Source of the DNA: Macrostomum lignano
Lineage: Eukaryota
NCBI GenBank assembly: GCA_002269645.1
Contig: NIVC01001113.1
Location: 248,001 to 312,000, forward strand
Reading direction: 5' to 3'
Length of the DNA: 64,000 nt
The notes under the pieces were generated by a model that was not told the DNA's origin, did no database searches, and saw nothing but the letters and a program-made list of their open reading frames with translations. Below, piece by piece: positions 2,382-61,262 of the stretch (position 1 is the stretch's first letter; every line of letters begins with the position of its first letter). The position numbers and the translations under genes are program-made.

Positions 2382-2420
2382 AGTAGTAGTAGTAGTAGCA
2401 GCAGCAGCAGCAGCAGCAGC
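2382..2420. repeat. (AGT)5(AGC)8 microsatellite, 5' flank of the LINE (poly-Ser in the CACTA frame)
   Basis: Direct reading. Confidence 0.95.
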
Positions 2421-2469
2421 CCGTCGCGCCTACAGGCGCGGCCGCCCTTGCTAGTCCATCCTTCAAGGG

Positions 2470-2539
2470 CGGGGTCAAGGACATCGCCTCTTCGCGGCGA
2501 CCCGGATGGCCGGCCATGCTCGGCCCCACCAAGATGTCC
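2470..2539 (+). ncRNA. HDV-like self-cleaving ribozyme (L1Tc/Ingi type)
   Basis: P1 (C)GGGGTC / GACCC(G); P2 GGACATC (2479-2485) / GATGTCC (2533-2539); P3 GCC/GGC around L3 TCTTCGC; P4 TGGCCG..CGG(CC)CCA; J4/2 CCAA. Confidence 0.72.
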
Positions 2540-5500: not shown

Positions 5501-7168
5501 AACATCACGGCTGCCACCACGGACATGCAGGTCGCCGTCGGTCGGGTTGCTAACTGGAGTCGCGCGCGCAAAATGCAGCTAAACCCCGTCAAGAGCGAGT
5601 GTGCGATCTTCACCACTGACCCTCACCAGGCGAACATGCAGCCGAATATTCACCTTGATGGTGCAGCCATTCCGTTCAACGCCAGCCCGCGCTTCTTGGG
5701 TGTCTACCTGGACCGCACCCTGGCGTTCCGCAAGCAAGTCGAGGTCGTCTGCTCCACGATCGGCAGCAGATGTCGCCTCCTCGCCTGCCTGGCTGCCCAC
5801 AACTGGGGCTGGCCTAAAGACAGCCTCCTCCGCACCTTCAAAGCTCTTCACCACAGCGTGCTCCACTACGCCGCCGCCGCCTGGCAGCCATGGCTGGCCG
5901 ACACTGCTATCGGCAAACTCCAACGAGCCCAAAATCAAGCTCTGCGGATTGTCACCGGCCAGATGCGCACCACACCCGCTGAAGCTCTCCACCTCGAGGC
6001 CGGGGTGTGCACTGTTGCTACCATACGCGATCATCTTTGCCTCGCGGCCTACGAGAAGGCCCTTCGGCTCCCGACCGACCACCCGCGCTTCATCATTGCC
6101 ACGGCCCAGGTTCCGCACCGCACTACCAGGAGCAGCTGGCGCCACCGTGCCACGCAGCTCCTGGCCAGCATGCCGGGCCACCTGGACTGCCGGGAACCTC
6201 TGCCGGCCCTCCCCCTCTGTCCCTGGCAACGACCACCTGCCACGCGCCTGATCCGCTGCAGCCTCTCCGCATCAGCAGGCGAGGCCGAGGAGTCTGTTGA
6301 GCATCTGACCGAAGGCGCCGCTAAGGAATCCCTTCGGAAGCGCGCCTTGAAGGCCATCCGCAATTCCGCTGCCGACCTTGTGCTCTACACGGATGGCTCA
6401 GCCACGGACGGCTGCGCCCGCGGTGGTGCGGCCTGCGTGATCACCAGCGGCGACCCGGCCGACCCCGAGGTGGTCACCACGATCTCAGTCACCGGCTCGC
6501 AGTACACCTGCAGTTTCGACGAAGAGCGACGGGCTCTTCAGCTCGCTACTAACTGGCTTCGCAATCAGCGATTCACTGGGCGGGCCCTCATCTGCACGGA
6601 CAGCCGCGCCCTCCTCACGGCTCTGCTGGGCGACAGGCCTCGCTGCTCGCTGCCCGACCTGGACTGTCAAGCTGCCGCCCTGGAGCTTCAATGGGTACCG
6701 GCACACTGCGGCATCCCCGGGAACGAGCTGGCAGATGAGGCTGCCAAGCAGGCGGCCGCTGCTGATTCCGCCACGGCACCAATTTCCTACCACAGCGCGT
6801 TGGCTATGATCAAGAGGCATGTTGGAGACCCGCCACTCACGCACGCACGCACCGCTGCGGTCTACAGAGCCCTCAACAGGGATCGCGACCGCGCCGAGCT
6901 GCGCAGTCGGCAAGACGCGGTGCTTCTGGCGAGGCTCCGCTCGGGTCACTGCAGCCTGCTCCGCGCATACTGCAACGTCGTCAACCCTGCCGCCGACCCG
7001 ACCTGCCCGCGCTGCCAAGACGGTCCGGAGGACCTGGAGCACTGGCTCAGCTGTCCGGCCCTCCGGCCAACCAGGCTTTCCATTTTCGACGAGGACGAAC
7101 TGGGCCTTTCGGTTCTGACCGCCGCCCCCGCGAGGTCAGTGGCGCTTGCGAGGCGCAGCCTACTCTGA
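2516..7168 (+). CDS. Ingi-type polyprotein: 2A + 3 PHD-like Zn fingers + APE endonuclease + RT + RNase H (intact 1550-codon ORF; likely start ATG 2534)
   Basis: GDIEQNPGP; CxxC..C..C..H..C..W.C x3; QWNTDG, IQESKL, GDFNAH, SDHLP; GFRRQR, DYSKAFD, GLPQGS, FADD; YTDGS, TDS, WVPAHCGIPGNELAD; CPRC..EHWLSC. Confidence 0.95.
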   Translation: MLGPTKMSIVRQLNPTASSRAFGTDAERGGHRVTLLNLVVFSWCITNLPWLAAHDILSGDIEQNPGPLNCDSCGNVIRQGTTPASCLINHCPRACHKKFACSGFRRCQREQHWICRAHRTPITGPPETENASAPPTVTPGPTGGPPMPCDSCRAPIRAGTQPLSCFKPDCTALAHRNTRCSGVPRYKGCPRWLCQRPAPTPPHAKSVAGRPLAATRPALQQPRAAGPPCASCHKAIRASTKPVRCYKCQSSYHKSCSGLRRSAADQAAESERWTCASCADMAAPAHSATNAQPVTTTAHPLTCLRTTLRQEHLQILQWNTDGITTRHSELNDLIGTAKPDVVLIQESKLKPQDVTPCFPGYAVVRADRSTIDGGGGLLTLIRETLAYKHLQVKCPPPIELCRIRVFLSSKKSILIDNLYCPPVRSGDEQADLLWGGGALPRDADFIGGDFNAHSPTWDSHQTADARGDALLDWATGCNLSVLNDGSHTRINRGTGGTSSPDVTLCRGTWHSRSTWCTGEDIGSDHLPIISRFGCAAKQLPSRPRTAWRRTGVDWDAFSTNVDAQVSAFKATGVSFKQQVERFTNAIVSAAHRHVGKQSLKRPARPWLSQEARQAIRHRNRLRKDVGNHRVEWLQACGDAAALIRESKEQCWRDFLLDSDFCQDASRAWRLVRSLSGTPADDCPNEALVAAGKAHCVNASKAELFAKHYAAVNRLGFNREDRALNRKAKEATRQGKSDLRLEGCTPFTEAELASAIAHQRPTGAPGPDEITPRFLKGLGPAARAELLRIFNRSLSAGVVAQQWKNATIIPLLKKGKPASDLASFRPVSLTSCVIKALERMVTTRLMFLAESRGWLSPQQAGFRRQRCCEDQILAAVQGISDGFQQTPMMRSIMVFLDYSKAFDKVWVEKLMLTLIDKGVPAVFVKWIRAFLGNRQARVCVNGTVSRYHRLRQGLPQGSVIAPLLFIIFIDPVVNCIPPQISILMFADDIALRRQNRNITAATTDMQVAVGRVANWSRARKMQLNPVKSECAIFTTDPHQANMQPNIHLDGAAIPFNASPRFLGVYLDRTLAFRKQVEVVCSTIGSRCRLLACLAAHNWGWPKDSLLRTFKALHHSVLHYAAAAWQPWLADTAIGKLQRAQNQALRIVTGQMRTTPAEALHLEAGVCTVATIRDHLCLAAYEKALRLPTDHPRFIIATAQVPHRTTRSSWRHRATQLLASMPGHLDCREPLPALPLCPWQRPPATRLIRCSLSASAGEAEESVEHLTEGAAKESLRKRALKAIRNSAADLVLYTDGSATDGCARGGAACVITSGDPADPEVVTTISVTGSQYTCSFDEERRALQLATNWLRNQRFTGRALICTDSRALLTALLGDRPRCSLPDLDCQAAALELQWVPAHCGIPGNELADEAAKQAAAADSATAPISYHSALAMIKRHVGDPPLTHARTAAVYRALNRDRDRAELRSRQDAVLLARLRSGHCSLLRAYCNVVNPAADPTCPRCQDGPEDLEHWLSCPALRPTRLSIFDEDELGLSVLTAAPARSVALARRSLL
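2693..2716 (+). other. 2A-like ribosomal skipping motif DIEQNPG|P
   Basis: Exact D(V/I)ExNPGP consensus about 55 codons into the ORF; 2A motifs are known in L1Tc and Ingi-related elements. Confidence 0.85.
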
Positions 7169-39068: not shown

Positions 39069-39562
39069 TTTGCACTGGTACTTACTCTTGTAATTAGGCT
39101 CGTGCGCTTTGTAATAAGAACCTGGAGAGACGAATGGAAGCATTTTTATTGAGAATTTAATTTTTTTTGGAGGATGAGCACCCTGCGCTTAGGATCTGGT
39201 TTCGCGTTGCGAATTGGATGTGGGGGAGAATAATGCAGATTATTATCTGATTGTTTCGAAGATGCTATGGGTGGATGTCAGTGGATTATGTAGGACACCT
39301 CTTATGCTCTAATTCTGTCAGGGATAATATGGATGGATTTAGGAGGATTATGTTCGAAGTTTTCGGATCAAGTGCGTCCCACTCTTTTTTCTGATTCTGT
39401 CGAGGATTATATCGATGGATTTAATGGGATTATGTTTAAAGTTTTCGTAGCAAGTGCCCCCCCCCCCTTTTTCTGATTTTGTCGGGGATAATATGGATGG
39501 ACTTAATAGGATTATGCAGGACGTTAAAAAATTGTCCCAAAAGCCCCCTCACGCATTAGACT
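39069..39562. repeat. Maverick-like terminal module, copy C (right end)
   Basis: ~95-bp head nearly identical to 52009-52100; three ~82-bp units; tail matches 52490-52542 and ends in CT. Confidence 0.7.
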
Positions 39563-39581
39563 TTGAGCATATAAAAAATAA

Positions 39582-40155
39582 ATGGATAGATATAAACATC
39601 CAAAATTAAGTGATGTCGAAGAGACTGATTACAAAGCGGCAGAGCAATGTTTTCTCTTAAGGCAATTTGTAGATAGGAAAAAAATTCGAGAGCATAATCA
39701 CTACAATGGTAAATATCGCGGCGCAGCATGTCAATCATGTAATACCAAGGAGGGCAAGGCGAATCAAACAGTACCGTTGTTTCTCCTGGATGAATCTGGA
39801 AAAGATCTAAACTATTTGATAGTTCCATTAACGCGAATAAAGAATACAGCGTATAAATTGGATTTCATTTCGAAATCAACGGAAGACCATGTTGCAATTA
39901 AGTGGGGGAAATATACAAGTGGCGTTGTGTTTTTAGATGGATCTAGGTTTTTGCAACCACCATTTACACTCTCTGAAGAAGAAATAAAATAAATCCCCCC
40001 AGTGATACAACAGGAGCAATTAGAAAGAGATACTCATTTGTCAATGCTTTTGAGAAGTTTAGGTCAACATTCTTGAACTATTTCAAGACAGATCCTGCGT
40101 ATTGCTTTTCCTTTTCTGGATTATCGTGGGCATGTGGGTTGAAATATACTAATAT
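39582..40155 (+). pseudogene. Maverick/Polinton protein-primed PolB fragment
   Basis: IREHNHYNGKYRGAACQSCN (EndoVII-like); FLDGSRFL; YFKTDPAYCFSFSGLSWACGLKYTNMELELL; deleted and frameshifted. Confidence 0.8.
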
Positions 40156-40159
40156 GGAA

Positions 40160-40720
40160 TTGGAATTACTTGGTTGTAACACCCCCTTCCCTCCAGCCCC
40201 ACTCTCCTTCCCTCTAGCCCCGCCCTCCCTTTTAGCTTCCACGCTCTTCTCCCCTCCAGCCCCACCCTCCTTTTTTTCCAGCCCCACCCTCCTTCCCTCT
40301 AGCTCCGCCCTCCCTTCCAGCTTCCACCCTCTTCTCCCCTCCAGCCCCACCCTCCTTCCCTCCAGCCCAACCCTCTTCTCTTCTGTAGCCCCACCCCCTT
40401 CCCTCCAGCCCCACTCTCCTTCCCTCTAGCCACGCCCTCCCTTTTTTCCCCACAAAACTACCATCTCCTTCCTTCCAACCCCTATCCTTCTCTCCAGGAC
40501 CTACCCTTGTTCTCTTTCAGCCTCACTTTTATGTCCCCTCCAGCCCCACCCCCTTCTTCCCTCAGCCCCACTCTCTCCTCTTCAGCCCCATCCTCTCCTC
40601 CCCTCCAGCCTCACCCTCTCCTACCCCAGCCTCAACCTCTTCGCCCCTCCAGCCCCACCCTATTTTCCTATTCAGCCTCACCCTTTCTCGTAGCTCTGCT
40701 AATAAAATTTAATTATCCTT
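40160..40720. repeat. C-rich ~20-bp satellite (CTTCCCTCCAGCCCCACCCT)
   Basis: Direct reading; reverse-complement block at 44335-44760. Confidence 0.9.
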
Positions 40721-40759
40721 TTCAGAAGTGAAAAATAATATTTCTCTTTTCTCTCTTCA

Positions 40760-41570
40760 GAATGTCCTCGCACCGGTCTTGAGGTCATACCACGTGCCGG
40801 AGCGACTGGTCGCAGCAACCATAACTCTCTTCTAGGAGACCCTGGCCGCCGTGGTTACACCTGACGGACTATCCGACCTGTTCAAAACGACCTCAGGGAT
40901 GCTACGTAGGGCCCTGCCAACAGATGAGGACAGCTTCCTACTGTGCCGGCAAACAAGCAGCCGCCAATCGGAGAAGCGGCTGTCACTCATGGGTTACGCC
41001 GACGACCTGGCGCTGCCCCCCTCTATGGCTGAGGGAGCTCAGCGCATGCTAGACAGCCTGGTTAGTGGCAGCTGCGGCATCGGTCGGGCTAGCGGTGAAC
41101 ATCGAGAAGACGGAGGTGATGACTGTACCTGCGGAGCTGCCTATCAAAATCACCTGCTGGGACACCCGACGGTCATGCAGCAGCTCTACCTTGCTGCGCG
41201 TGCTTCACGTACCCCGGCGATCTTGTGCCCAGTGTCCAGGAGGACTTGGCGCGACGCAGGGGCCTGGCCTGGGCGGCTTTCCGCTCCATCCGAGTCGTCC
41301 TGCAGAACGCCGCGCTGCCAGACTGCTGCGATCACCTAGCGAGACCCTCCGCAGACGAATACATCAGCTGGCGGGCCACACCATCCACGCGGAGGCCTAC
41401 TGTTCTCAACCAGTGTAAGACGTCCTGCTGCTCACGATGCAGGGCCCCTGGCGCCGGGGCTACGGCCGGGCGAGTCGCGTCGCGGATTGCCTGTTGGATG
41501 GCGCTGGGGTGATTGGCCAGGCGCACGCTGTTGCCGCCTTTAGAGAGCTCGCACTGAGAGAACTGATCTG
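40760..41570 (+). pseudogene. RTE-clade non-LTR retrotransposon 3' fragment
   Basis: VVTPDGLSDLFKTTSG; GYADDLAL; GLAVNIEKTEVM; RRGLAWAAF; LAGHTI; internal deletion and frameshifts. Confidence 0.8.
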
Positions 41571-42148
41571 ACACCGCCTCCCATTGTGAACTGTTACTTT
41601 TAACTCAACAATACTGGGTGTGCCTTGTTGTTATTTTCTCTTCAAAAAAATTTGCCTAGCTGCGAACTGTGATGGTGCATATCGCGTACTCGCGATTCAA
41701 TAGCTTATACTTATTACTGTTTTACTTATTGCCTTCCGATGTCAATGCTATTTATTGCGTGTAATATTACCGCAAAATTCAAGTTCGGGTGTCATTATTT
41801 AGCTACTGCCGCTGTTCTGCATTACAATTATTATAGTACTTCGTATCTACTGACGTAACATTGTACCAAAAATTTTACATTGCGACGCGCCAAAACCAAT
41901 CTTGTTGAATGCTTCTAGCGTAATAGCCGTTTGAATCGCTTGAAATACATTGTAATCCCATGCTGTATTGCTTTTGACGATCTAAACGACACTGGCTAGA
42001 CTTCACTGATCCATATGCTCCTCAAGCAAGGTATATGGAAAGCAGATTGAGCAGCAAACTTAGTGTTTGATTGATAGAGATATTGTATAGTTGGATCTTT
42101 GGATCACGGATAGAACCAAGGAATCTAGATCTGGAGGCATGGAGCCAC

Positions 42149-42292
42149 GGAAAGCAGCGGAGCTGTTGGGGGGAGCGGCGGAAAGCAGCGGAGCTGTTGG
42201 GGGGAGCGGCGGAAAGCAGCGGAGCTGTTGGGTGGAGCGGCGGAAAGCAGCGGAGCTGTTGGGGGGAGCGGCGGAAAGCAGCGGAGCTGTTG
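42149..42292. repeat. 31-bp minisatellite (GGAAAGCAGCGGAGCTGTTGGGGGGAGCGGC), about 4.7 copies
   Basis: Direct reading. Confidence 0.93.
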
Positions 42293-43789
42293 GTTTGATA
42301 ACAGCTGACAGGCTTATTTGCATAGAGCGATGTTATGAGAATGAATTCAGTCAGTCAGTTTAAGGCAGAATGCTGGCTCTCTGCCTCTGCCTACCCTTCA
42401 ACTGAATCGAGTGAACTCGCAGTGCCTGAAGTGCCCGAAGTTGGTTCTACATGTACGTATGCATATTGTTTTGGCAAACTCGATTACAAAAAGGTACGGC
42501 TCATATATTACAGTGTACTACATGTATTTGAGTGGCAAATTGGTGACGGTTTAAATGTTGCTAGGGCTACGTCTATGTGACCCGGCCGGTGCTCTACTAC
42601 CTTGAATTCATGCCCGTAAGGCTCAGCCTCCAATCATTTACTAATTATTTAATGTCGCGAAAGGGGACTCTCAGTCCCCAACATCCTGCATGGTAATTAG
42701 GGGGCCTAGGGTCTTGTCCTTGGGGCCTTCGACAAGTGACTGCCGCAATTTGACTGGGGACTATGAACTCTAAACATTGGCACCTCAAGATTAGAGCACT
42801 TATTAGGCACTCGAACCAAAATAATGTTGAAGGACTACAGAATACATGTATATCATAAAATAGAGAGAAGCTAGTTCATTTAGATATTTTTTAATCTCAA
42901 TCCCTAATTTTCATCTTCATTTTCATTTCTAAATCTCAATCCCCGATTGTTAATTCCCTTATATCCCTGATTCCTAATGTTGAAATCCGAATCCAGCTTG
43001 TTGATATCCCTCAGAGGGAATGATGAGGGGATGCTTCTGAGGACCGAGTTGCTGCTTTAGCTATACATGTATACATCTAAATATGATCCTGTTTTAGTAG
43101 AGTAGAAATATGTGAGAGCACAGAGGAGACAGAAAATAGTAGGGGAAGTTAAGGGGATACCCTAGAGGACATTCTGTTTCTCAAACTTTGCAGATCTTGT
43201 CTGTGTTATTCTTAGCAGATCTTCTCAATCTGCTCGGTTCTTGCAGGATCTTCAAAGATGGGAGGTACATTTGCTTTGTTATTCATTTGGCTAAAGTGTT
43301 CTAGCTGAACTATATTTATTTTATGACAAAAAGGGACAATAAATTTAAGAAAATATGCGATTCGAAGCTATAAAAAGATATAAAAGCTAAGCTCTTGTAC
43401 GATGTAGCAAGTCGCCCAGATCTAGGTTTACCTAAGTAATATTATAGCGAAGATCTTGCACGTTCTTGCAAGTACTTGCGCAGCAACCCAAGAAGATAGA
43501 CAAGATCTGCTAAGAATCAACAAGTCAATGTCTTCTAGGGTATAGGGCATTGGCAACTTTTACAAGAAACTTGTATAAGACTGGTCGGGTCAGGTATCAT
43601 ATTCTTAAGTTGAATATGACGTCAGTTGGAACTGGGGCACCTTTTACGAAATGTTTGAAAGCTGCCATGCAGCTACATGTATACGAGATCATAGAACAGA
43701 GAGAAGCTAGCTCATTTAGCCCAACCTCAAGAGCCAGAATTCCGAGTGGCAGTCGAAAAATTCTGCCCAGCCACTGAGACCATCAGTTC

Positions 43790-44337
43790 TGCGGCGCGCC
43801 AAGGGAGCCGACAAAATGATGATCATCGCATGCTACGACAGTTTTGGCATTATTCTCATCCACCGCATTTCTGAGGGCCAAAACATCAACCAAAAGTTTT
43901 ATCGGAGCTTCCCCACCCACCATCTTCGACCTGCCTTGCGCAAAAAGCGGCCACAGACCCTGGAACTTGGTCCACTCCTTCTGCACGACAATGCCAGTTC
44001 GCACACAGCCCGCATTGTGCAGGACCTACTGCGGGACTATCAGTGGGAGGTGCTGCCTCATCCTACTTACTCCCCAGACCTCAGTCCCTGCGATTTCAGC
44101 CTTTCCCAAAGCTTAAGAACCAGCTTCAAGGGTATTCAAGGGAACCAGCATCCAGGCAGCGAGATCGGCCGCATTGCAAAAGACCTGTGCAAATCTGGCG
44201 CTGCTGACGGCGTCCACAAGTTGCCTGGCTGCTGGTAGCGCATGATTCAAACCAACGGAAGTTATTTTGAAGTTGCTTGAGCTGTTCACTGTTCTGACAC
44301 TCGTTTGTTGAAAATTAATAAGTGTTTAATGAAACAG
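43790..44337 (+). pseudogene. Mariner transposase C-terminal fragment with partial right TIR
   Basis: KMMIIACYD..GIILI; LLHDNASSH; LPHPTYSPDLSPCDF; ends at ..TTTAATGAAACAG before the satellite. Confidence 0.85.
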
Positions 44338-44760
44338 AAGGGGAGAAGAGGGTGGAAGCTGGAGGGGAGGGTTGGGGCTAGAGGAAAGGGGTGGGGCTGG
44401 AGGGAAGGGGAGGGGCTGGAGGGAAGGGGTAGGGCTGGAGGGAAGGGGTGGGGCTGGAAGGAAGGGGTGGGGCTGGAGAGAAGGGGTGGGTCTAGAGGAG
44501 AGAAAAGGGTGGAAGCTGGAGGGGAGTGTGGGGCTAGAGGGAAGGAGGGTGGGGCTGAAGGATAGGATAGTGGGACTAGAGGCTAGGAAGGTAGGGCTAG
44601 AGGGTAGGAGGGTGAGATTATAAAAAAGGGTAAGAATTTAATGGGAAAACATTGTGGGACTGAGGAGGAGGGTAATACTGAAGGGAAAAGAAGGTGAGGC
44701 TTTAGAGAAGAGAATATGGGCTAGAAAGAAAAAGGTAAGGCCTAGCATTAGAGGGAAAGA
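44335..44760. repeat. G-rich satellite, reverse complement of the 40160-40720 family
   Basis: GGGGCTGGAGGGAAGGGGT units, decaying rightward. Confidence 0.88.
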
Positions 44761-45399
44761 AAAGGTCACAACTAGAGGGATATCATGACTTTATATAGTG
44801 GCAATGAATAGTTATTACTTAGTCTATAGTTGATTAGACTATGGCTAATTATTTCAAAAAAGATTTTTATTCTAGGCATGCTTTATCTTATATAGTTATA
44901 TTCTTACTTTTAATTCCCATAAAACAATATTATTAAAACATTTTAATATAAAACATTATAAACATAGGCTAGGCTTAGGTCTAATAAAAAGATAGGCCTA
45001 AGCTACTTAAATTAAAGAAGGACCAAATGAATTTTAGATCCAAAGAAAAAAAGATTCTTAATCCTATTATCATTAAAAAACATATTCTAATATAGCATAA
45101 AGGCTTTATAACACAAAAGAAAAGAAAATATTTTAGACTTAGACCTACTAGGGCCTAGTCAATAGTAGAAAAGAATCAATGATTTGAAATAGAAGGCTTT
45201 GTATTACTATTAGGTAAAAATTACTAGGTAGGTAGTTTTTATCTATTGCTATTAGATTTTAGAAGCCTAGACAGCTTATTAAATATGCACTTTGCCTAGG
45301 CTAAACAAAAAAATAGATATAGTTATGTAAATTTTAAATGATTCCAAAGTCTAAAGAGCAATAAATAAATGTGTAAGCCTAACTAATTATAACAAACAT

Positions 45400-46904
45400 T
45401 ATAAAGTTTTCAACATTCTTACCCATTAGAGCTGTGGCTATAACGGATTCCTAACTCTTTCTGTGCTCTGGATCTGGATGAATTTGGTTATGCAGATTAA
45501 CAATGTCATAGTCGTCATCACTAACTCTAAGTACATCCGAGTAATTATATCCCACCGATTTATTAACGTAATCGTCATATCTATACTCGTGAAACTCACC
45601 TGTAACGAGGTCATATACTCCATCATCAAACCCTAGCAAATTCCATTTCATTTCGAATTCAATTTCATTGTTAGTAAACCTCTCTTTGAACAAAGTAGTT
45701 ACCTGTTTGAGTTTGTTGGGTCCTTGTATTGAATTTATATTCTTCATTGCACTCTGTAGTTTCTTTTCAAGTACTTTTAACTTCTCTTTATCATCAGCCG
45801 CCTTCTTAATTGCAATTTCGAGTCTAGTCTTTTGGTGGTTTAACCCACTGCTAACAAGGTGTGATATTTTAAGAAATATGTCATTTATACTACTTAGTTC
45901 TCTACTTATCATCATCAAAATAGTAAATACCATCGCTATTGTAAATTATATTATTCTTCTTATATTCATAAACAAAGTTGGTTAAGTTAACATCAGTGAA
46001 ATTATCATCAAGATACTCAATCCTATCATAGTAATCATATTTGCTTTTCCATTCCTTATATTTACTATAGTTTTTTTCACTAGCCCATTTCTTCAACGTA
46101 CCGTCCATTTCTTCTGTCCTCTCGATCAGCAGAGCTGGTATTAGTGCTATTCCACAGCTTCTTACATGCCTCGGAATCGAACTTATCATAATTGACTTTA
46201 TATTAATCAGTGAATACTTTGTACATTTCATCACCACTGTCTATGTCGCGGAGTATGAGTGCTACCTTGTACCAAGAATCATAGTCTTGGTTTTTGTGTT
46301 GTATTATATTTAACAACTTTGAAACTCCTTCACAAGTGGGTGGTGGAACGGCGCTTTTTAGTGCTTGTTTATCGGGTTCTTGGTTTTCTGTTTTATCCTG
46401 TGGCTTAATTAATCTATTTATCTCATCAAGAATTACATCTGGCATGTCTATTAACCCTTCGGGCTTTATACGTTTGTATTCCTTAATTTCACCGACATAA
46501 TAGAAACCTGGTGGAGCAAATACTAAAGCCGGAATATCAAAACCAACACTTTGTTGAATCGTTACTTTTAATCTATCTACCTTGTTAAAGTGAAAGTGAT
46601 GACCCCTGTTTGTCTGAACAATCCAATCACAATAAGTCATACACAGTTCATTCAACTCAGGGCATAGGTCAGCATTATCAATATCTATTACGGTTATATT
46701 TGAATTTCGAGTATCTATCCAAATCATGTTGTCTACCTCTGGTTGAAATGGTGGGGAGGTTGAATTCCTATCTGCTTTGGTTGGCATTCCTGACGGTATT
46801 TTTTTCTTTGTTTGAGAGACACTTGAATCGTTTGGATTTTTTCCTTCCGTTTTATTAAAAATAAATTTAACAATATAATTTATCGGTTTCAATGTATTTG
46901 TCAA
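45400..46904 (-). pseudogene. Prim-Pol-type primase + PriCT-2 + D5_N region of a D5-like primase-helicase (P-loop missing)
   Basis: ITVIDID..VQTNRGHHFHF (AEP motifs); DYDSWYKVALIL (PriCT-2); NLLGFDDGVYDLVTGEF..DDYVNKSVGYNY (D5_N); ALMGKNVENFIMF then decay; two frameshifts. Confidence 0.75.
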
Positions 46905-47209
46905 GGGTTATGGGGGGGTTTGAAAATGCTCAATTTCAGCATGACGAAAGATTCATCATTCCTTATGTGCTGTCTCGAAATCAATGCCCATTTATCAACA
47001 TGTGCAAGATATACTCGGAATGAATACAAATATGGGGGGCATTTACGATCGGTGTGTTTTAATATTTCTGCTTTATATTCATCGTAAGCTTTATCAACTT
47101 CTTCAATTAATCGAGCCTTTCGAATGGGTGTTTTTATTTGAGAGAAATTTATAATAGAATCATAATATTTTAGTGGCAGTACATTTCGAACATTTGGGTT
47201 ACCTTCCAT
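46901..47209 (-). CDS. Orphan 102-aa ORF abutting the primase gene
   Basis: ATG-TGA ORF whose stop overlaps the next gene start by 4 nt; virus-like compact layout. Confidence 0.45.
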   Translation of the reverse strand: MEGNPNVRNVLPLKYYDSIINFSQIKTPIRKARLIEEVDKAYDEYKAEILKHTDRKCPPYLYSFRVYLAHVDKWALISRQHIRNDESFVMLKLSIFKPPHNP

Positions 47210-47344
47210 TTTTTCTAGGAAAATTTAGCCATGTAGTTTTCATTTTTAGTTTAAGTTATTAAGTTTTAAGCTAGTTTTGCATGACCTCTTTGATTATATT
47301 ATGACTCAGAGTTGTTCTTTGGCAGAGTAGGCAAACTTCACTCA

Positions 47345-47700
47345 ATTGCCCCGAAGGGTCGCAGACAGTCTGATGAGTAACACAGGAATTCGAGGCTCTA
47401 TTTGCGCCACACACAAACAAGCGCGCCGCAACAATATAGTCCACTAAATCAAACTTCATTCTATAGTTCCGAAAGAACGCGGACTCCGTCCGATTGCCCC
47501 GAGGGGTCGCAGACACAGTTTGATGACTAACACAGGAATTTGGGGGTCTACTCGCGCTACTCACAAACAAGCTCACCTCACAACAATAGGGTTGACTAAA
47601 GAAAACTTCATTTTATCGCCCGAAGGGTCGCAGAGGCTGTTTATGACTAACACAGGAATTCGGGGTTATCGTGTGCCCATCCACCCACGGCAAAACACTC
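47345..47700. repeat. Three 120-150-bp degenerate direct repeats (CCCGAAGGGTCGCAGA..TGA(G/C)TAACACAGGAATT); a further copy at ~53240-53320
   Basis: Direct reading. Confidence 0.8.
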
Positions 47701-47922
47701 TGAGTCACGCTTTCAATTCAAACCAAAACGCAAGGCCAAAAATTTTTCTCACGTGTTGCTCTCGACATGTGAGTTGAATGGATTGCATGAATTCTATCTA
47801 TTGTCATGAAAAAAATATATATATGAGCACCCCGCCGCAACTGAATAGTCGTATGGCCCGCCACAGCAGAATAGACATTTCACCCTGTTTTATAACATAG
47901 AATTTTCTAGTTATCTAAAATA

Positions 47923-48746
47923 ATGGCCTCCTCTACTCCCATCCATAGTCAGATAATCAACACTATTAAGAGCATTAGCACCAAAGATTCAAATAGTTCC
48001 GCCGTTGTTAGTAAGTTGGATGCTGATGAGCAGCAGCAACTACTAAAAATTCTGAAACTAATAGAAAGTCAGTCCACGAAGAAAGATCACACCCGAGAGA
48101 AACTCAACAACAAAGAGGCAAAGCATCTAAGAGAAGCGCGATTTATTGCTCTCTTGACGGAAAAGCTTGACAATGTGAAAAACGAGTCAATTGTCGTCAA
48201 AACTCGGTAAGTTTTATTACAGAATCTTATCACATAGTCAATAACTTTTCAATGAGAAAACAACATTTTATTTCAGTTTCTATATGAGGATCTATGGATC
48301 TATGTGAGGAGGAACTTGGTCAGGAGGAAGGTCAACTAATCGTTCAGTTTTCTAAGTTGCAAGACTTTATTAGCAGTCTAGAAATTTTAGCCTGCCTATC
48401 TAGAAGGAAGCAGGCAGAAGTTATTGCCAAGCTACGCGAATCCCTTGGCTTGAGCATCAAAGGCGTTGCTGCTAAACTGCAAATCGATGAAAAGTTCGCT
48501 GAAAGACTCTATACTTTTCACAATCTAATCGTCAAATATCCAGTCCTAGTGGTATCAGGTTACAACTTTGAAACACTGCTAACCCACAAGGCTCTTATTC
48601 AGAAAAAGGCGGCAGAAGACGAGAACTTTGCTTGCCGCCTTGGAGTTTCGCCAAACATACGATACGAGGGCGCTGACGAGACCGACGAAGATATGCTGCT
48701 AGACGAAGCAACTGATGACATGGCAAAGTCATTAATTTCTGGATAA
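47923..48746 (+). pseudogene. Orphan gene X (intron 48207-48276), paralog of 60279-61262
   Basis: Shared motifs RFIA.L.E.....K.E.IV..TR|intron, K.QAEV.AK, F..RL.TFH.L..K.P.....GY..ETLLT.K..I.K.A..DENF.C.L; one frameshift. Confidence 0.7.
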
Positions 48747-48914
48747 AAAATGTCCAGAAAAATTTCTGGAGATCCAGAAAAACTGATTTAACACGAAAAA
48801 ATCATTTTACTGCTTTCGTTACTACACAAAGTAGGATACAAAACATCTTTTTTAAAAAATACACAAACTGAGCCAAGTTACCATCTTTAGATTAAAAAAT
48901 ATTCTTTTGTGTGT

Positions 48915-49763
48915 TCACGCATTCATTTTTCTGTTACGAAAAATAGACAAAAATGGCACACCATACGCAAGTATACAATTTGAATGAATTGCAAGTAGGA
49001 GACCCAGTAGAGTATCTATGTATGGTGATTCAACTCCTGGAAGCTTAGGGTAGCTCGAGGTGTCTGTTCTATTAGATGCCTTAAGTTCGACAGTGTCTTG
49101 TTTAATTGTATGGGACGGTTTCAATCCAGTCATGCGTGTGATTTCATTGTTCAGTTGCTCTATAACAGTGGGGAGGCGGTCTGTCGATTTTGTATAGTAT
49201 TGGCCACTTTTTAGTTTTAGCGCCTCTGCTGTCTGCTTAGTGAATAGTCTCTTGGCTAGAGTTAGATTGAATCTTTCCACAAAAGCCTGGTCTCTGTGGA
49301 GCTCAGTTCTTCCGTAGCGCATTTTCGTATTGTTCTTTTCCATAAGCGATTTGACTGTACCCATGCCAGGATCAGTCATAAAGGTTTGGGGGTATGTGAG
49401 CGGAGAGTTTTTGTAAATTTCTTGGAGGGCAGCTGCAACTGCTTCTGACTTCTTTGTCTTAAGTGGTCTCGCTTCCTTATATCTGGAGGCAGTCTATAAC
49501 TGTGAGAGCATACTTGTAGCCTGAGTCATTGGGGAGAAACAGAAGATCTGTTTGGTGCGCCTCATTAGGTTTATAGATGTTAAAGTGAGGTCCTGTAAAT
49601 TGGACAGGTGGGAAATAGACTTGGTAGACTTCTTGGTTGAAGAGCCATCTTTCAACTGTTTGTTTTAATTCATTACAAAGTTCTGCGAGTTTGGTGACTG
49701 CATTTTTCCTACAAAGAATCCTTCGTCGCTGTAGTAGAGCTTTTGAAATTTCTGATCTGTCAT
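48915..49763 (-). pseudogene. Maverick-type retroviral-like integrase, copy A (frameshifted)
   Basis: Clearly homologous to 62278; FMTDPG, VERFNLTLAKRLF. Confidence 0.88.
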
Positions 49764-49794
49764 TTTTTTTAAAAAGAAAATTTTAAATAAAAAA

Positions 49795-50265
49795 TTGCAA
49801 CGCTATGGTGGTAACTTAGATTCACATGGACTGATAGAAAAGCTTCCTCATCCAGACAAAGGCTGGACAATTCCCGGCTACAAATATTGCGGGCCTTCGA
49901 ATCCACAAATACAGTTAGAGAAAAACAATAATCCAAATCCTGGGCATGAGCCTGTGAACGAGCTAGACTCTGTCTGCATGTGGCACGACGTTAGGTATAG
50001 GGATTTTCCTGGGGAGAAGAATCGCTGGGACAAAGAAATGCTTAGAAAAGACAATATGGGGACTTCAAGCGGGTGGAGGGAATCGATCGCTCGGAAGCTA
50101 GTTAAAGCTGTTATTTTTGGAAAGACAAATCTGGGGTTGGGGCTTGGCGGCTGTTTGGGAGAAGGGGCGGGTTTTGTATTGCATGCGCCAAGTAAAGAAC
50201 TAGGAAGACTGCTGAAAGAGCTGGGGGTTGAGAGAGCAGAATCATTGTTAATCGAATTTAGCTAG
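49795..50265 (+). CDS. Parvovirus-VP1-type phospholipase A2, copy A (start codon reads TTG)
   Basis: IPGYKYCGPSN..EPVNELDSVCMWHDVRY: Ca-loop-like YxGP and HDxxY. Confidence 0.85.
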   Translation: MQRYGGNLDSHGLIEKLPHPDKGWTIPGYKYCGPSNPQIQLEKNNNPNPGHEPVNELDSVCMWHDVRYRDFPGEKNRWDKEMLRKDNMGTSSGWRESIARKLVKAVIFGKTNLGLGLGGCLGEGAGFVLHAPSKELGRLLKELGVERAESLLIEFS

Positions 50266-52008: not shown

Positions 52009-52542
52009 TTTGCATTGGTACTTACTCTTGTAATTAGGCTCGTGCGCTTTGTAATAAGAACCTGGAGAGACGATTGGAAGCATTTTTATTGAGAACTTAA
52101 TTTTTTTTCAAAGGGCAAGTGCAGCCCACTCTTTTTTCTGATTCTGTCAGAGATAATATGGATGGATTTGATCGGATTATGTTCGAAGTTTTCGGAGCAA
52201 GTGCGACCCCCCTTTTTTATTCTGTCGGGGATAATATGGATGGATTTAATGGGATTATGTTCGAAGTTTTCAGAGCAAGTGCGACCCCCCTTTTTTCTGA
52301 TTCTGTCGGGAATAATATGGATGGATTTAATGGGATCATGGACGACGTTTTCGGAGTAAGTACGACCCCCCTTTTTTCTGATTTTGTCGGGGATAATATG
52401 GATGGATTTAATGGGATTATGTTCGAAGTTTTCAAAGCAAGTGTGACTTTTTTTTATTCTGTCGGGGATAATATGGATGGATTTAATGGGATTATGGACG
52501 ACGTTAAAAATTTTGTCCCAGAAGCCCCTCATGCATTCTACT
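52009..52542. repeat. Maverick-like terminal module, copy A (right end)
   Basis: Conserved head, five 75-81-bp units, tail ending ..CATGCATTCTACT (AGTAG on the minus strand). Confidence 0.72.
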
Positions 52543-52836
52543 ATTCTCCGACTCGCTAGTTTCATAAGAACTATTTGTTGACTCAGAATCTGTTGAACGA
52601 ACCTCCCAATCCTCTGAATTTAAATAATCACCAAGTTGAAATATTAGCTCCCCCTCATGTTCTAAATCATATAACCCATCCAACTGTAGCGGATAAAGTT
52701 TTAATTCGTGCCTATCGTCATATTTTAAATAAACCTCATCGATTATTCCATTCAATATATGCTGTTTTATTATCTCTGCATTTTTAGCAACAGCTTCAAA
52801 AGTATCACTTACTGAAAAGTTGAAAACACGGCTCAT
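52543..52836 (-). pseudogene. Orphan acidic ORF cut by terminal module A
   Basis: ORF 52504-52836 runs into the module end at 52542. Confidence 0.35.
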
Positions 52837-53411
52837 TTTTTGTAACAGAAAAACTCTTTTAAGACCCTTTGCGCCTGCGGCGCGGGCGGGGGTTATTGTC
52901 TGTTAGTTGCTGTTGGGTGTGTTGGTTAGATAGTAGTAGGCAAAACAACGCTTCTAGATCAGACCCTATAAGAGTCTAGAGGGGGCGGTCAAGTTTATAG
53001 CACAAACACATTTTTATGTTTGTGTCCGTTTTTAAGTATTGGTTGTTATATGTGGATTGTTGTGGGGTTTGGCGTTTTTTGAATTGGTTAGTGTTATTGG
53101 TGCTTTTTGGGGGGTTGGGTGCTTTTTGGGATTGGATGGTGCAATTTAGTGTTTTTTTTATTTTCCCCCGACCGCCCCCTCTGGACTTCTAAATGAGGTG
53201 TTTATTAGGGGCTCTGGGTCTAGAAGCGTTGTTTTGCCTACTACTGATGACTAACACAGGAATTCGGGCTTCTATTCGCGCTAAACACAAACAATCTCGC
53301 ACCGTAACAATATGGCCAGCTATTATCTGACCCCCGTAGACTTGCGACTTGAATAGATACTGTAGAGGTTCTACCTCGCGCCCACCCACTCAAAATACCA
53401 ATCTGACCATA

Positions 53412-54704
53412 CGAGGGGCACTATTAAAGTTCTGAGCCTGACCAAGATCTTATAGTGGCAAAGTGTTGAAACTTTAGGCTCTAAAAGCGCCATATGTTAA
53501 TAGTCTATTGTCAACTTTTCAGAATTTTCTGCATTCCCTAAGTCCCACTGCACCATTTTATTTCCAGCACCCTATGGCATTTTCTCAAGAATTGAAGCTT
53601 GAGCACAGGGCAGTGATTAAATTTCTGACTCGGGAGGGCTCAAAGCCTGCTGAAATTCAAAGCCGCATGGCTAGTGTGTACGCTGACGCTGCCCCCTCAT
53701 ACGCCACCATAAAGCGCTGGGCAGCCGAGTTCAAGCGTGGCCGCGACTCGCTCGAAGATGACCCCCGATGTGGACGACCCCGGACTGCTGTCACTGCCGA
53801 CAACATCCAGCGCATCCAGGCTCTGGTTGACAGTGACCAGCGGGTGAAAGTTAGGGAACTTGCGGCAGACACTGGACTCTCTGACCCGCAAGTCATTGAG
53901 ATCCTGCACCAGCATCTTCATCTGTCCAAGGTTTCTGCCAGATGGATCCCACGAATCTTGACAAGGGACCAAAAGACCGCACGGGTGCAGTACTCAAAGC
54001 TTGTCCTGGACTCCTACGATCCGGACCCTGCCAACTTTCTGTCCTGCTGCGTGACCGGGGATGAGACGTGGATCCATCACCACGATCCCGAGTCCAAGCA
54101 GGAGTCCAAGCAGTGGCTGCCAGTTGGTTCACCTGCACCACTGAAGGCACGGACTGCATGCAGTGCGGGCAAGATTATGCTCACCGTCTTCTGGGATGCC
54201 AAGGGCCCGCTGCTGCTGGACTTTCTACCGCACAAGCAGACAGTCACAGGCGCCTACTACGCTGACCTGATCGCCCGTCTGCGCGAGGCAATCAAGGAAA
54301 ATAGGCGAGGGATGCTGAGCCGAGGTGTTGTGCTGCTGCACGACAATGCACCGGCCCACACTAGCAGGATTGCCAAGGCTGCTGTCAGTGTCGCAGGGTT
54401 TCGAGAGCTGCCGCACCCAGCCTATTCACCAGACCTGGCCCCGAGCAACTTCCACCTGTTTCCACATCTCAAGCGGGCGCTCCGTGGACAGCGATTTGAC
54501 ACTGATGATGCACTGAAGGATGCTGCAACTGCTTGGTTTGAGGGCTGCTCGGTGCAATTCTTCCAGAGTGGCATTGAGGCGCTGCGATCAAGATGCCATA
54601 AGTGCATCTTGGTTGGGGGAGACTATGTTGAGAAAAGCTGATCTCACTTTGCCCATATCTCCTCTCTTTCATATTAAGGCTCAGAACTTTAATAGTGCCC
54701 CTCG
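53412..54704 (+). mobile_element. Full-length mariner element (1293 bp)
   Basis: Perfect 28-bp TIRs CGAGGGGCACTATTAAAGTTCTGAGCCT; TA TSD. Confidence 0.97.
53574..54641 (+). CDS. Mariner transposase (355 aa, open frame; third catalytic residue is N)
   Basis: HTH, GRP, WIPRIL, VTGDETW, HDNAPAH, YSPDLAPSNF. Confidence 0.95.
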   Translation: MAFSQELKLEHRAVIKFLTREGSKPAEIQSRMASVYADAAPSYATIKRWAAEFKRGRDSLEDDPRCGRPRTAVTADNIQRIQALVDSDQRVKVRELAADTGLSDPQVIEILHQHLHLSKVSARWIPRILTRDQKTARVQYSKLVLDSYDPDPANFLSCCVTGDETWIHHHDPESKQESKQWLPVGSPAPLKARTACSAGKIMLTVFWDAKGPLLLDFLPHKQTVTGAYYADLIARLREAIKENRRGMLSRGVVLLHDNAPAHTSRIAKAAVSVAGFRELPHPAYSPDLAPSNFHLFPHLKRALRGQRFDTDDALKDAATAWFEGCSVQFFQSGIEALRSRCHKCILVGGDYVEKS

Positions 54705-58080: not shown

Positions 58081-59931
58081 ATGCTCCTGGTGGAAGAGAT
58101 CGAGAATACTTAAAGGACGAAACGTCTCCCAGCGACGCCTACTGGACATGGGGCGGTACTCGTACTACGCGCAAGAAAACCGCCAGATGACACCGGAGGT
58201 CACCAATACCTCCTAGAGGCAACAGTATACGTCCCTCCAACCGCTCATATGGCCGTTGGCGGTGTTGGCATCCCGTGCTCAGCGCCTGGTACAACAGTTC
58301 TTACAAGAAGTGTTCTAAACACCTAACGCTCTTACTTTAATTAATTCCAGTTATCTACAACACGACAATTACGCTAATGTTATTACTGTATAAAAATGCG
58401 TGTATCTTTCAATAAAAAGCCATTACCAATGTGACATTTCAAACAACCCACGATTTTTCTTTTTGTGACAAATGTATTGTAAATTCCAGACAAATTTTTC
58501 GTAAGGAGAGATATTGTAAAGATCTCTAAGCATGGTAGCCTACTAGAAATAGTAAGATAAAAAATTACGAATGCAAACTTAACATAGCATGCGTCGTACT
58601 CTATTTTAGTAATACCTGTAATAACACGAAAACAGTGAGTGACCATTCCATAATTCGAAAAAACCAGTTTTCAACCTATATTTTCAAATAAGGTATCCTT
58701 AAGGTACCCTTTTGAAAGGGTGAAAGGGTTTCACCCTTTGTAAGTTGAAACTTTAACTTAAGTTTCACCCTTTTCTATTTAAAACCCCACCGGTCAAAGG
58801 ACAAAGTCCATTTCTTTAATATTATTAAATAATAAAGATAATATTAATATTAGTAAAATCAAAAAACGGTTTGGGGCTCAAGGTAAAAACGGCAAATCGG
58901 TAAAAAATATTTTTGGGTGATTTTTCACGCAAAAAAGTGCTAAACTTGGTCATCGTGCAAAAACCGGACTTTGGAAGATTTTTGGAATTCATCTCGCATC
59001 AAGTCATGTGCGCTTTGTCAAATTTTAGAGAGCTACCAAAACCATACCGTAATGGGTTACGTTAATTAATATTCTAAGAAAACACTATTTATATCTGCAA
59101 CCTAAGAATCATGCGCAAATTGTGACTCAGAACCCTACGTAGAATGAACGTTTGTTTGTTCAAGGAACAGGATTTCAGCAGCTGTTTGCTTAACTCCATA
59201 TATAGTAATGCTTAAACTTTTATGACCTCTTACTTATATACGCATGACCTAAGTAATTATCCGATTTTAACATATATGTGCAACCTCAAAAATTCGGTGG
59301 CTTTAACAAAAATGCGACGTTTTTGGCCAAAAATGCGACTTACCTATAGTTCAGTACAACTGTGTAAAAAGACAGTTTCTTTTGAAGTTTCGCTTATCAA
59401 GGAGTGTAGGACTAGGATAGGCATTTCAGTGAGCGTCACGGAAGTAGTCCAAATCGGAAAAAGTATTTTTGATAGCAAGAGAGAAGGCATTTAGAAAATA
59501 AGTTATCGAGAAACGAAATATACATTAGAAAGGAAATCATTTCTACTTTAATATAAGACCACCGGCACGTTGATACGCTTCATAGCCAGAGCTATGAAGT
59601 GTGAAAGATATGTGAAAGTTTGCGGCAAATTTCAAATTTGTGATTTCGGAAAAAACATGACTCGTAACTAGACTTGAATTGTAAGAAAACAGAAGGCTCT
59701 TTCATTAAAATTCAAACGTCAAACGATAAATAGATGCCCGCCTTCGTTTGTAGGCAGGTTTGGGGGGGTTAGGGTTACGCTTATACTAATACTAGGATAC
59801 TATTCTAAGGTTACTATTCTAACTAACTATCAAGCCAATTTTGACCATGACCCTCCCTACCGTATTTGTAAACCACGTTGCGCTAGAACATTACACTTGA
59901 CATTGAGTGTTTTAGGCATGATTGTACAGTA

Positions 59932-60000
59932 AGTAGAATGCATGAGGGGGCTTCTGGGACAAAATTTTTCACCTCCTCCATAATCCACCTAAGTTCTAAA
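59932..60000. repeat. Maverick-like terminal module, copy B (left end, truncated)
   Basis: AGTAGAATGCATGAGGGGGCTTCTGGGACAAAATTTT..CATAATCC is the reverse complement of the tail of copy A. Confidence 0.72.
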
Positions 60001-60278
60001 AATAAAACCCATGCCATGCGCTCCACATGTGCTTTCCATTCTCCTTCCGCTTTGGCAACCCCAATCAACCATTAATAGAAAATACTGCCTATAAATAGAA
60101 AATCTGCGGGTTTCCCTTCTAGAATTCAAATTCTAGAAAATTCTAGAATAAAAAGAAAATCCATGGATTCCCGAGCCCACACCAATGGTATATATACAGC
60201 CGATTCACACCGCCCCTCGCCTCACCCTGCCTGCTCCACCTCGCCCTTGCTAAACCTCACTCGAATTTTTTTAATCTA

Positions 60279-61262
60279 ATGGCTTCCAAGACGCCAAGTA
60301 AAATTCTAAATAAAATTAAAAACATCAATACAAAGGACACAACCAGCACAGCAATCACCATCTCGGCAATGACCGAGGAAGAATAAGCTGCATTATTGAA
60401 AAGCCTTGAAAAGATTGATGAGCAATCTTCTAAGAAGGAAAGATCCGAGGAGGCCAAGCGCGTTGATGTCGAGAATGAAAGAAGAGACGTACGGTTCATA
60501 GCAAGGTTAAAGGAAACGATGAACAACATAAGAAAGGAAGAAATTGTGATCCAGACAAGGTAAGTCTTTTGCTTATTATTCTCTACCATTTTTTAGTGAA
60601 ACACATTGACAAAATTTCTCATAAATCTTGATATGGTGATTTAAACGTGATCAAACATGATTATAGACAGATTTGACATTAGATTAGAGATTTATGCAAG
60701 CAAACCTTTGATCTAATTTACATTATGATTGCATATTATTTCTTTTTAGATTTAACAACGCCAGGGAGTTGTGCACGGCCGATGTGCCAGCGATGAAGAG
60801 AGCATGCGCACGCAATACATCAATCTGGACTTCTTTATCGCAGAGGTTGAAGTTCTGGGGTGTCTAGCGAAGAAAAAACAAGCGGAAGTATTTGCAAAGT
60901 ACAAGAACAAGTTTGGTCTAACAACGGAAGAGACAGCCAGACGCTTGGATACTCCGGATAAATTTGGTCAGCGGCTTTTCACATTTCATGGTTTATTAAC
61001 CAAATTTCCTAACATCTTGTTCTCCGGCTACAGCATGGAGACATTGCTTACTTTCAAAAAGACTATCGAGAAGGAAGCATTCAACGACGAAAACTTCCGA
61101 TGCAAGCTAGAAACGGAGTTCACAATAATATGGGAAGGTGAAGACGAAGACGAAAGAAGCCTGTTGGAAGAGACAGAGGAGAAGATGGAGACATCTGCTT
61201 ACACAGTGAAGAGGAAGGAAGACGATGGACAATATGAAGGTGACTCTGAAAAAATACTATAA
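60279..61262 (+). pseudogene. Orphan gene X' (intron 60560-60749), paralog of 47923-48746
   Basis: Same phase-2 intron after IV(K/I)(T/Q)..TR; homologous exon 2; one stop and one frameshift; CTATAAATA upstream at ~60089. Confidence 0.7.

Follow-up and report, generated by a model that had tools for sequence, protein, structure and literature searches.

The window analysed here, a 64,000-nucleotide stretch of the Macrostomum lignano genome, holds on its minus strand (45,393–46,907) the pseudogene of an AEP-PriCT2-D5_N-SF3 primase-helicase, a decayed member of a multicopy Maverick family that we call family A. The remnant retains codons 1–557 of 840 and breaks off at codon ~557, just short of Walker A, so that the helicase core is missing and the window contains no helicase motif. 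Relative to a natural open copy, it carries a 150-nt gap at 46,813/46,814, frameshifts near 46,106 and 45,904, and in-frame stops near 46,205 and 45,452. It is 93.6–94.9% identical to 14 sister copies, compared with 95–100% for one reference copy against the same set. Six-frame reading of 45,000–47,400 gave three overlapping minus-strand pieces with AEP motif I (ITVIDIDNAD), the motif II His and the motif III Asp, a PriCT-2-like segment and D5_N. The motifs reported in the first-pass annotation were thus all recovered, on the minus strand, with a Pfam match for D5_N (PF08706, E 1.4e-9), although those for Prim-Pol and PriCT_2 were weak in this copy (E 0.012 and 0.034). Its picture of an intronless, AT-rich gene was accurate (GC 30–36% vs 43–55% in the flanks; no intron). 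The extent it gave to the gene, up to 47,209, was too large, because 46,913–47,209 is the orphan ORF itself (~100–114 aa, minus strand), which does lie directly upstream, as had been noted. This ORF precedes the primase-helicase in all nine other family-A loci mapped; it had no usable Pfam, NCBIfam or Atlas match and was not found in family C, a sister family described below.

Further family-A sequence follows. A subterminal repeat region (47,230–47,900) consists of three ~170-bp units that are 73–83% like the sequence at the left end in other family-A copies and at family-C ends. Two terminal cargo genes lie beyond it on the plus strand: ORFx (47,911–48,207), which has the same order and spacing beside the helicase on contig C954, and ORFy (48,288–48,743), to which homologous ORFs occur at the left family-A end in C954, C2232 and C620, in family C (C2379) and at 60,756–61,259 of the window. 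As a whole, 47,230–49,016 resembles family-A left ends, and C954 reproduces the order orphan ORF–ORFx–ORFy. The last family-A-like bases (48,925–49,016) run up to the inner boundary of the left TIR, which is absent. At 49,017 family-B sequence begins, a Maverick fragment (49,017–50,246) with an rve integrase on the minus strand and PLA2 on the plus strand. The integrase that the first-pass annotation placed ~2 kb from the gene is indeed ~2.1 kb away; it belongs, however, to this other Maverick family, a neighbour of the helicase element.

On the other side, a family-A pPolB remnant (39,562–40,176, plus strand) retains the HNH insert, the altered ExoII and the ExoIII deletion junction, and is 92–94% identical to five sister copies. 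It is collinear and convergent with the helicase remnant. Between the two lies an unrelated multicopy insertion (40,177–45,392) of 5.2 kb with inverted simple-repeat arms and a mariner fragment (43,720–44,235), standing where ~2.2 kb of family A, the 3' ends of both genes, is absent. The insertion also contains a 31-bp array, and its arms recur inverted at other loci.

Several other elements were seen in the window. A family-C Maverick end occupies 52,507–53,253, with an ORF 79–86% alike; its TIR has a nested inverted copy of its own tip ~300 bp inside, and family-A TIRs have a nested inverted copy ~100 bp inside. A mariner-type transposase frame (53,478–54,638) is open over 387 codons. A family-B Maverick runs from 59,931 to 64,000 and on into C1113:312,003–316,749, with ORFx/ORFy-like cargo, PLA2, integrase and a PF03175-type pPolB whose exonuclease motifs are intact. 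A GC-rich open frame of 1,589 codons lies at 2,399–7,168.

Family A and its primase-helicase

We searched the M. lignano genome with the gene at the DNA level (at least 77 matches, 40 of 82 candidates scored, mostly at 90–96% identity) and with the helicase part at the protein level, where all 88 candidates were scored and gave no sign of a second, distant helicase family. Both searches combined placed the gene on 44 other contigs. Three complete copies (C2696:30,607–48,420, C67:348,665–366,913 and C2232:171,455–190,172) measure 17.8–18.7 kb and are bounded by ~600-bp TIRs with tips AGTAGTAGT (AGTAGT). Their TIR arms agree at 555/561, 526/543 and 556/559 positions, respectively, an identity of 97–99.5% that points to recent insertions. 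The 6-bp TSD matched in five of the six copies with both ends read; it is mismatched in C67, and C3327 and C184 share flanks.

The gene complement comprises an Eco47II-like nuclease, an rve integrase (E 7.5e-11) fused to PLA2 (E 0.0025), a DJR major capsid protein (PF21738, E 1.8e-13), an A32 packaging ATPase (Pox_A32, PF04665, E 8.4e-6), penton-like and protease-like ORFs, a lectin fibre, the orphan ORF, the primase-helicase, pPolB and a SLATT-like ORF, with the primase-helicase and pPolB tail to tail. The penton-like and adenain-like protease labels are tentative and based on resemblance; size and place of the ORFs fit, and both are conserved in family C. Neither ORF matched Pfam or NCBIfam, and the protease-like ORF also had no PDB match. 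By its TIRs, TSD, integrase, pPolB, DJR capsid and A32 ATPase, family A is a Maverick/Polinton, and the presence of PLA2 suggests membership of Group 2. In one sister copy, the capsid protein is identical to an NCBI entry named for Macrostomum lignano. Both replication genes and the element ends are covered by contigs from four runs presumed to be RNA, a coverage that shows nothing about transcription.

The restriction endonuclease-like gene (PF09553, E 7e-7; L020:9314-10000) lies upstream of the PLA2-integrase. PLA2 sits at the rve N-terminus in families A and C (L021:95-1366; L083:7124-8353), whereas in family B the two are separate divergent genes. The fibre-like gene (L021:6333-7697), with F5/8 type C lectin domain(s), follows the capsid block in both A and C. 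Family A occurs as two isomers, one in C2696:30607-48420 and C67, the other in C2232, C412, C620 and C716, which differ by an inversion of the block orphan ORF–helicase–pPolB–SLATT-like gene with respect to the capsid block. Mavericks were also found nested in one another: family B in A's helicase gene (C716:332,389–348,557, with a 6-bp TSD) and family A inside B (C67:348,665); in the window, a family-B end adjoins A's pPolB (39,563) and B starts again at 49,017. This nesting may reflect target preference or common insertion-tolerant regions.

Of the first 14 sister loci read, 3 keep the primase-helicase frame open over 840–841 codons, and these open frames match Prim-Pol (weakly), PriCT_2, D5_N and DUF5906. 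In unbroken natural sister copies, PriCT_2 matched at E 3e-12 to 4e-11 and D5_N at E 7e-13 to 9e-12; identity as a D5-type primase-helicase exceeds chance. Natural open copies have AEP motifs I–III, PriCT-2, D5_N, SF3 Walker A and B, motif C and the Arg finger. An AlphaFold model of one open copy (47-row alignment, pLDDT 83.8) aligned along its length with ASFV C962R PrimPol (E 1.7e-28) and also matched mpox E5 (E 1e-19), and Foldseek in BFVD matched D5 proteins of NCLDVs, virophages and phages, with NCLDV D5 proteins on top and the mavirus SF3 at rank 47. All 47 rows share the Walker A G/K, the Walker B E and the motif C N, and Walker A ends in GKG in 32 of them.

The closest proteins (P0153–P0156, 40–43%) are metagenome sequences without context. 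P0153, the closest full-length relative at 40%, lacks the AEP motif II histidine, which family A keeps. The nearest outside loci are giant-virus MAG contigs (27–39% identity); tblastn at E 1e-3 gave no match to Maverick genes at 12 outside loci (three metagenome, nine viral-contig). In a FastTree helicase tree (105 of 199 candidate rows, without labelled references), family A groups with the metagenome proteins P0153–P0156, a weakly supported group beside giant-virus-MAG loci.

We considered the gene's partners in this light. The first-pass annotation had offered two readings, a pPolB-less hybrid of integrase A, PLA2 and primase-helicase, or an endogenised giant-virus fragment. The cassette 2 kb away in the window, the giant-virus MAG contigs as closest outside loci and the NCLDV D5 proteins atop the Foldseek matches all speak for this pair of readings. 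We nevertheless consider it highly improbable. Among 39 other contigs with the family-B integrase/PLA2 cassette (a sample; 40 of 1,040 candidates scored), a single one also has the helicase gene, and there family B is inserted in that gene with a 6-bp CACCAT duplication, so the linkage at other loci that was to be checked amounts to one nested insertion. By comparison, the helicase gene lies within 3 kb of pPolB on 23 of 27 family-A pPolB contigs, the remaining four matching the pPolB N-terminal part only, and on 0 of 15 family-C contigs; these contigs are copies of one event and not independent cases. The helicase stands beside pPolB in all 12 of the best pPolB loci. The helicase is accordingly not in place of pPolB, and complete copies contain both together with their own integrase, which disposes of a hybrid built with the neighbouring cassette. 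That a D5-type primase-helicase occurs in an animal Maverick that also has integrase and PLA2 was borne out, with family A's own PLA2-rve gene. A giant-virus fragment is contradicted by the TIRs, TSDs and whole Maverick gene set around the helicase in complete copies, and no NCLDV core gene was found among their ORFs scanned. A helicase-type PLV, which has no pPolB and usually a tyrosine recombinase, was likewise rejected, since family A has pPolB and rve. The premise that animal Mavericks are without such genes is itself dated, a 2026 preprint describing AEP-SF3 substitutions in Group 2 (10.64898/2026.06.19.733378).

A degenerate exonuclease in the family-A polymerase

Next, we examined the polymerase that accompanies the helicase. 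Family-A pPolB is ~1,030 aa long, compared with 1,100–1,200 aa in its closest database relatives (96 matches). We aligned 51 rows, made up of 48 of these 96 matches and families A, B and C. ExoI D/E, ExoII Y/D and ExoIII Y/D are present in all 50 other rows, whereas family A has I/D in ExoI (D->I, E->D) and K/D in ExoII (Y->K), and a ~95-aa deletion takes out the KGxYPYEY-ExoIII block. The ExoI change occurs in 14 of 14 family-A loci, and the deletion junction was read in 13 of the 14 as well as in the window remnant. The vOTU Cys/His and the Pol A, B and C motifs are retained, with YSDCDS as motif C in place of YxDTDS. A model of the protein (pLDDT 84.5) had phi29 polymerase as its top match (E 1.5e-17). 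Judged by these motifs, the family-A polymerase is predicted to have lost proofreading and departs from the canonical Maverick pPolB; the change is fixed in the family. At none of 14 loci (the 12 best pPolB loci plus C2696 and C4665) are both genes unbroken; assembly errors may contribute to these breaks. Family-A pPolB matches PF02945 and has an HNH insert but, unlike that of family B, does not match PF03175. The HNH-bearing, non-PF03175 polymerases of A and C (L067, L082, L087) resemble the pPolB2/Beta class; the survey table of PMC10748475 gives 0 pPolB2 in 73 flatworm genomes.

An own-genome pPolB search also revealed family C, with open pPolB frames of 1,246–1,332 codons that are 56% identical in the palm. 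Its gene types are as in family A and its exonuclease motifs are intact. No helicase was found in family C at the seven loci mapped, among 18 ORFs scanned by Pfam or on the 15 contigs. A palm tree (22 of the 51 rows, long and redundant rows left out) placed A sister to C with support of 97/93, as did a quick tree of all 51 rows (SH-aLRT 96), while the TP-OTU tree supported the grouping weakly (83). The family-A branch is longer (0.71 vs ~0.4). Identity between A and C is 55–67% in pPolB, integrase and protease-like genes, compared with 24–33% in capsid, penton-like and ATPase genes. With capsid modules this distant, C is a modular relative of A and not its true ancestor, and the comparison holds for the polymerase, not for the whole element.

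Selection on both replication genes

To gauge constraint, we compared sister copies with a natural copy. Pairwise dN/dS was 0.28–0.58 for 16 of 17 primase-helicase copies, the outlier being a near-identical copy (1.21 on 6 changes), and 0.14–0.38 for pPolB. We then estimated omega with transition bias modelled, leaving out two near-identical pPolB copies and one helicase copy. For differences common to two or more copies, omega was 0.38 for the primase-helicase (SF3 0.18, PriCT-D5_N 0.49, AEP 0.56) and 0.21 for pPolB (TP-OTU 0.19, exonuclease remnant 0.20, palm 0.23). Palm constraint was significant (p 1e-8), whereas the AEP value differed from neutrality at p 0.058 and indicated less constraint than on SF3 (p 0.008). 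Private differences were nearer neutral (0.74 for the primase-helicase, 0.58 for pPolB). These patterns of substitution indicate that both genes were functional while family A spread, and the exonuclease remnant is probably retained as a scaffold.

Selection on both genes bears on the possibility that a hand-over of replication is midway, with the AEP-SF3 protein already the replicase and pPolB leaving, kept mainly for its terminal-protein/OTU part. Replacement of pPolB by AEP-SF3 is described as frequent in Group 2 Mavericks (10.64898/2026.06.19.733378), the AEP of ASFV C962R polymerises (PMC10516667), and family A retains the AEP catalytic DxD and His in 17 of the 17 loci covering them while its pPolB is shortened to ~1,030 aa and altered in motif C. 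We consider such a hand-over unlikely, since the palm is strongly constrained and the AEP domain is the least constrained part of its protein. Among the loci mapped there is also no family-A subfamily that lacks pPolB and is otherwise complete; the losses of pPolB seen there are large internal deletions that removed capsid genes too.

The pairing could instead be coincidental, the primase-helicase being accessory cargo for repair or fork restart and the exonuclease loss an unrelated change tolerated by a small genome. The contrast between A and C is one evolutionary event and therefore an association, not a cause; Maverick ends here hold swappable cargo, and the best match in structure, ASFV C962R, is described as dispensable and linked to repair (PMC10516667). 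This reading appears quite improbable to us in view of the constraint on SF3 and the position of the helicase gene, which is fixed beside pPolB and inverted with it as one block in the two isomers. Moreover, exonuclease loss is seen in none of the 50 relatives and is absent from the Polinton pPolB groups surveyed in PMC10748475, yet it recurs together with helicases in mavirus and PLVs (PMC11071308).

A proposed mode of replication

Taken together, we think it probable that family A replicates with two genes, an exonuclease-degenerate pPolB and a D5-type AEP-SF3 protein, with the helicase likely unwinding the template for the polymerase. By analogy, replication would most likely be mavirus-like, that is, protein-primed and aided by a hexameric helicase. 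The vOTU domain would free the terminal protein after excision, the terminal protein would prime synthesis at the AGTAGT ends, and the palm would elongate without proofreading. A hexameric SF3 ring could open the duplex in place of a strand-displacement tunnel. In phi29, the polymerase can do without a helicase because TPR2, palm, fingers and exonuclease domain together form such a tunnel around the template (PMC4974454). Losing part of the exonuclease domain would plausibly impair displacement, a function that an SF3 ring can provide. Because TP-vOTU and AGT-repeat ends are retained, protein priming would continue, leaving the AEP domain a secondary role such as re-priming or gap filling. The helicase and the upstream orphan ORF probably came from the gene pool of NCLDVs and PLVs, along the branch that also saw the exonuclease decay. 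Motif C YSDCDS and the longer branch would also fit a polymerase in decay. In mavirus and PLVs, the loss of the exonuclease goes with the gain of a helicase, for which Krupovic et al. suggested compensation (PMC11071308). A helicase can nevertheless be gained without such a loss, as seen in an intact pPolB that has a fused SF1 helicase (PMC12721341).

The closest parallel is mavirus, the Cafeteria roenbergensis virophage, which like family A has an rve integrase, a TP-vOTU-palm pPolB with decayed exonuclease and a separate SF3 helicase (PMC11071308). Unlike family A, it is a protist virophage whose SF3 protein has no recognisable primase domain (PMC3671162), whereas family A has an animal host, a Polinton-type capsid (PF21738), a helicase with full AEP-PriCT2 and an exonuclease fold that is partly kept and constrained (omega 0.20). 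Group 2 Maverick-Polintons/adintoviruses share with family A the animal host, phospholipase domain, rve integrase and AEP-SF3, although there AEP-SF3 is described as a pPolB substitute, whereas family A has both under selection; the figures and supplements that accompany the preprint may include such cases (10.64898/2026.06.19.733378). Beta adintovirus PolB/pPolB2 resembles the family-A polymerase in its vOTU, HNH (Endonuclease VII) insert and lack of a PF03175 match, but is reported with conserved Exo I–III, which family A lacks; family A is classed here by features, not by a tree with published references (PMC8502044, PMC10748475). ASFV C962R and poxvirus D5/E5 (PDB 8iqi, 8wh0) share the AEP-PriCT2-D5_N-SF3-tail layout, Walker A/B, motif C Asn and Arg finger, but differ in being only 13–20% identical and in coming from large cytoplasmic viruses with RNA-primed PolB.

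The usual example of a Polinton with a D5-like primase-helicase is a Trichomonas Polinton. That some Polintons encode such proteins has been described (PMC4405056), and these resemble family A in combining a pPolB element with a D5-like gene (PMC4405056, PMC3671162), a pairing called uncommon (PMC3671162). Insect-associated PLVs have either pPolB or a primase-helicase (PMC11296320), coral elements have scattered helicases (PMC11131425), and a survey of ~22,000 integrase-linked pPolBs reports exonuclease motifs conserved by taxon group (PMC10748475); the literature compared also included PMC4642659 and 10.1101/2022.05.25.493380. We found no published animal Maverick that pairs an exonuclease-dead pPolB with a primase-helicase, though figures, bioRxiv supplements, Repbase and subscription papers may hold one. 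The components are known; on the strength of the sequences compared, what appears new is that they occur together, that the exonuclease loss is fixed and that a matched sister family exists.

How small protein-primed viruses switch to replication by a primase-helicase is a standing question for the evolution of PLVs, virophages and giant viruses, and published cases are mostly end states. In family A, both modules coexist under selection, and the same genome holds in family C a matched sister polymerase with proofreading kept and no helicase. Whether helicase gain compensates for exonuclease loss, as has been proposed (PMC11071308), thus becomes testable with two natural polymerases and one helicase, and a trade of exonuclease for helicase predicts a higher mutation rate in family A than in C. 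It is an evenly balanced prospect that family A is an animal Maverick with an independently evolved mavirus-style replisome, in which a proofreading-dead pPolB depends on a captured giant-virus-type primase-helicase, and that it represents the first animal case and third independent origin of this trade. If true, family A would represent a still-living intermediate stage in the change from pPolB to a primase-helicase that has been put forward for PLVs and for how giant viruses arose.
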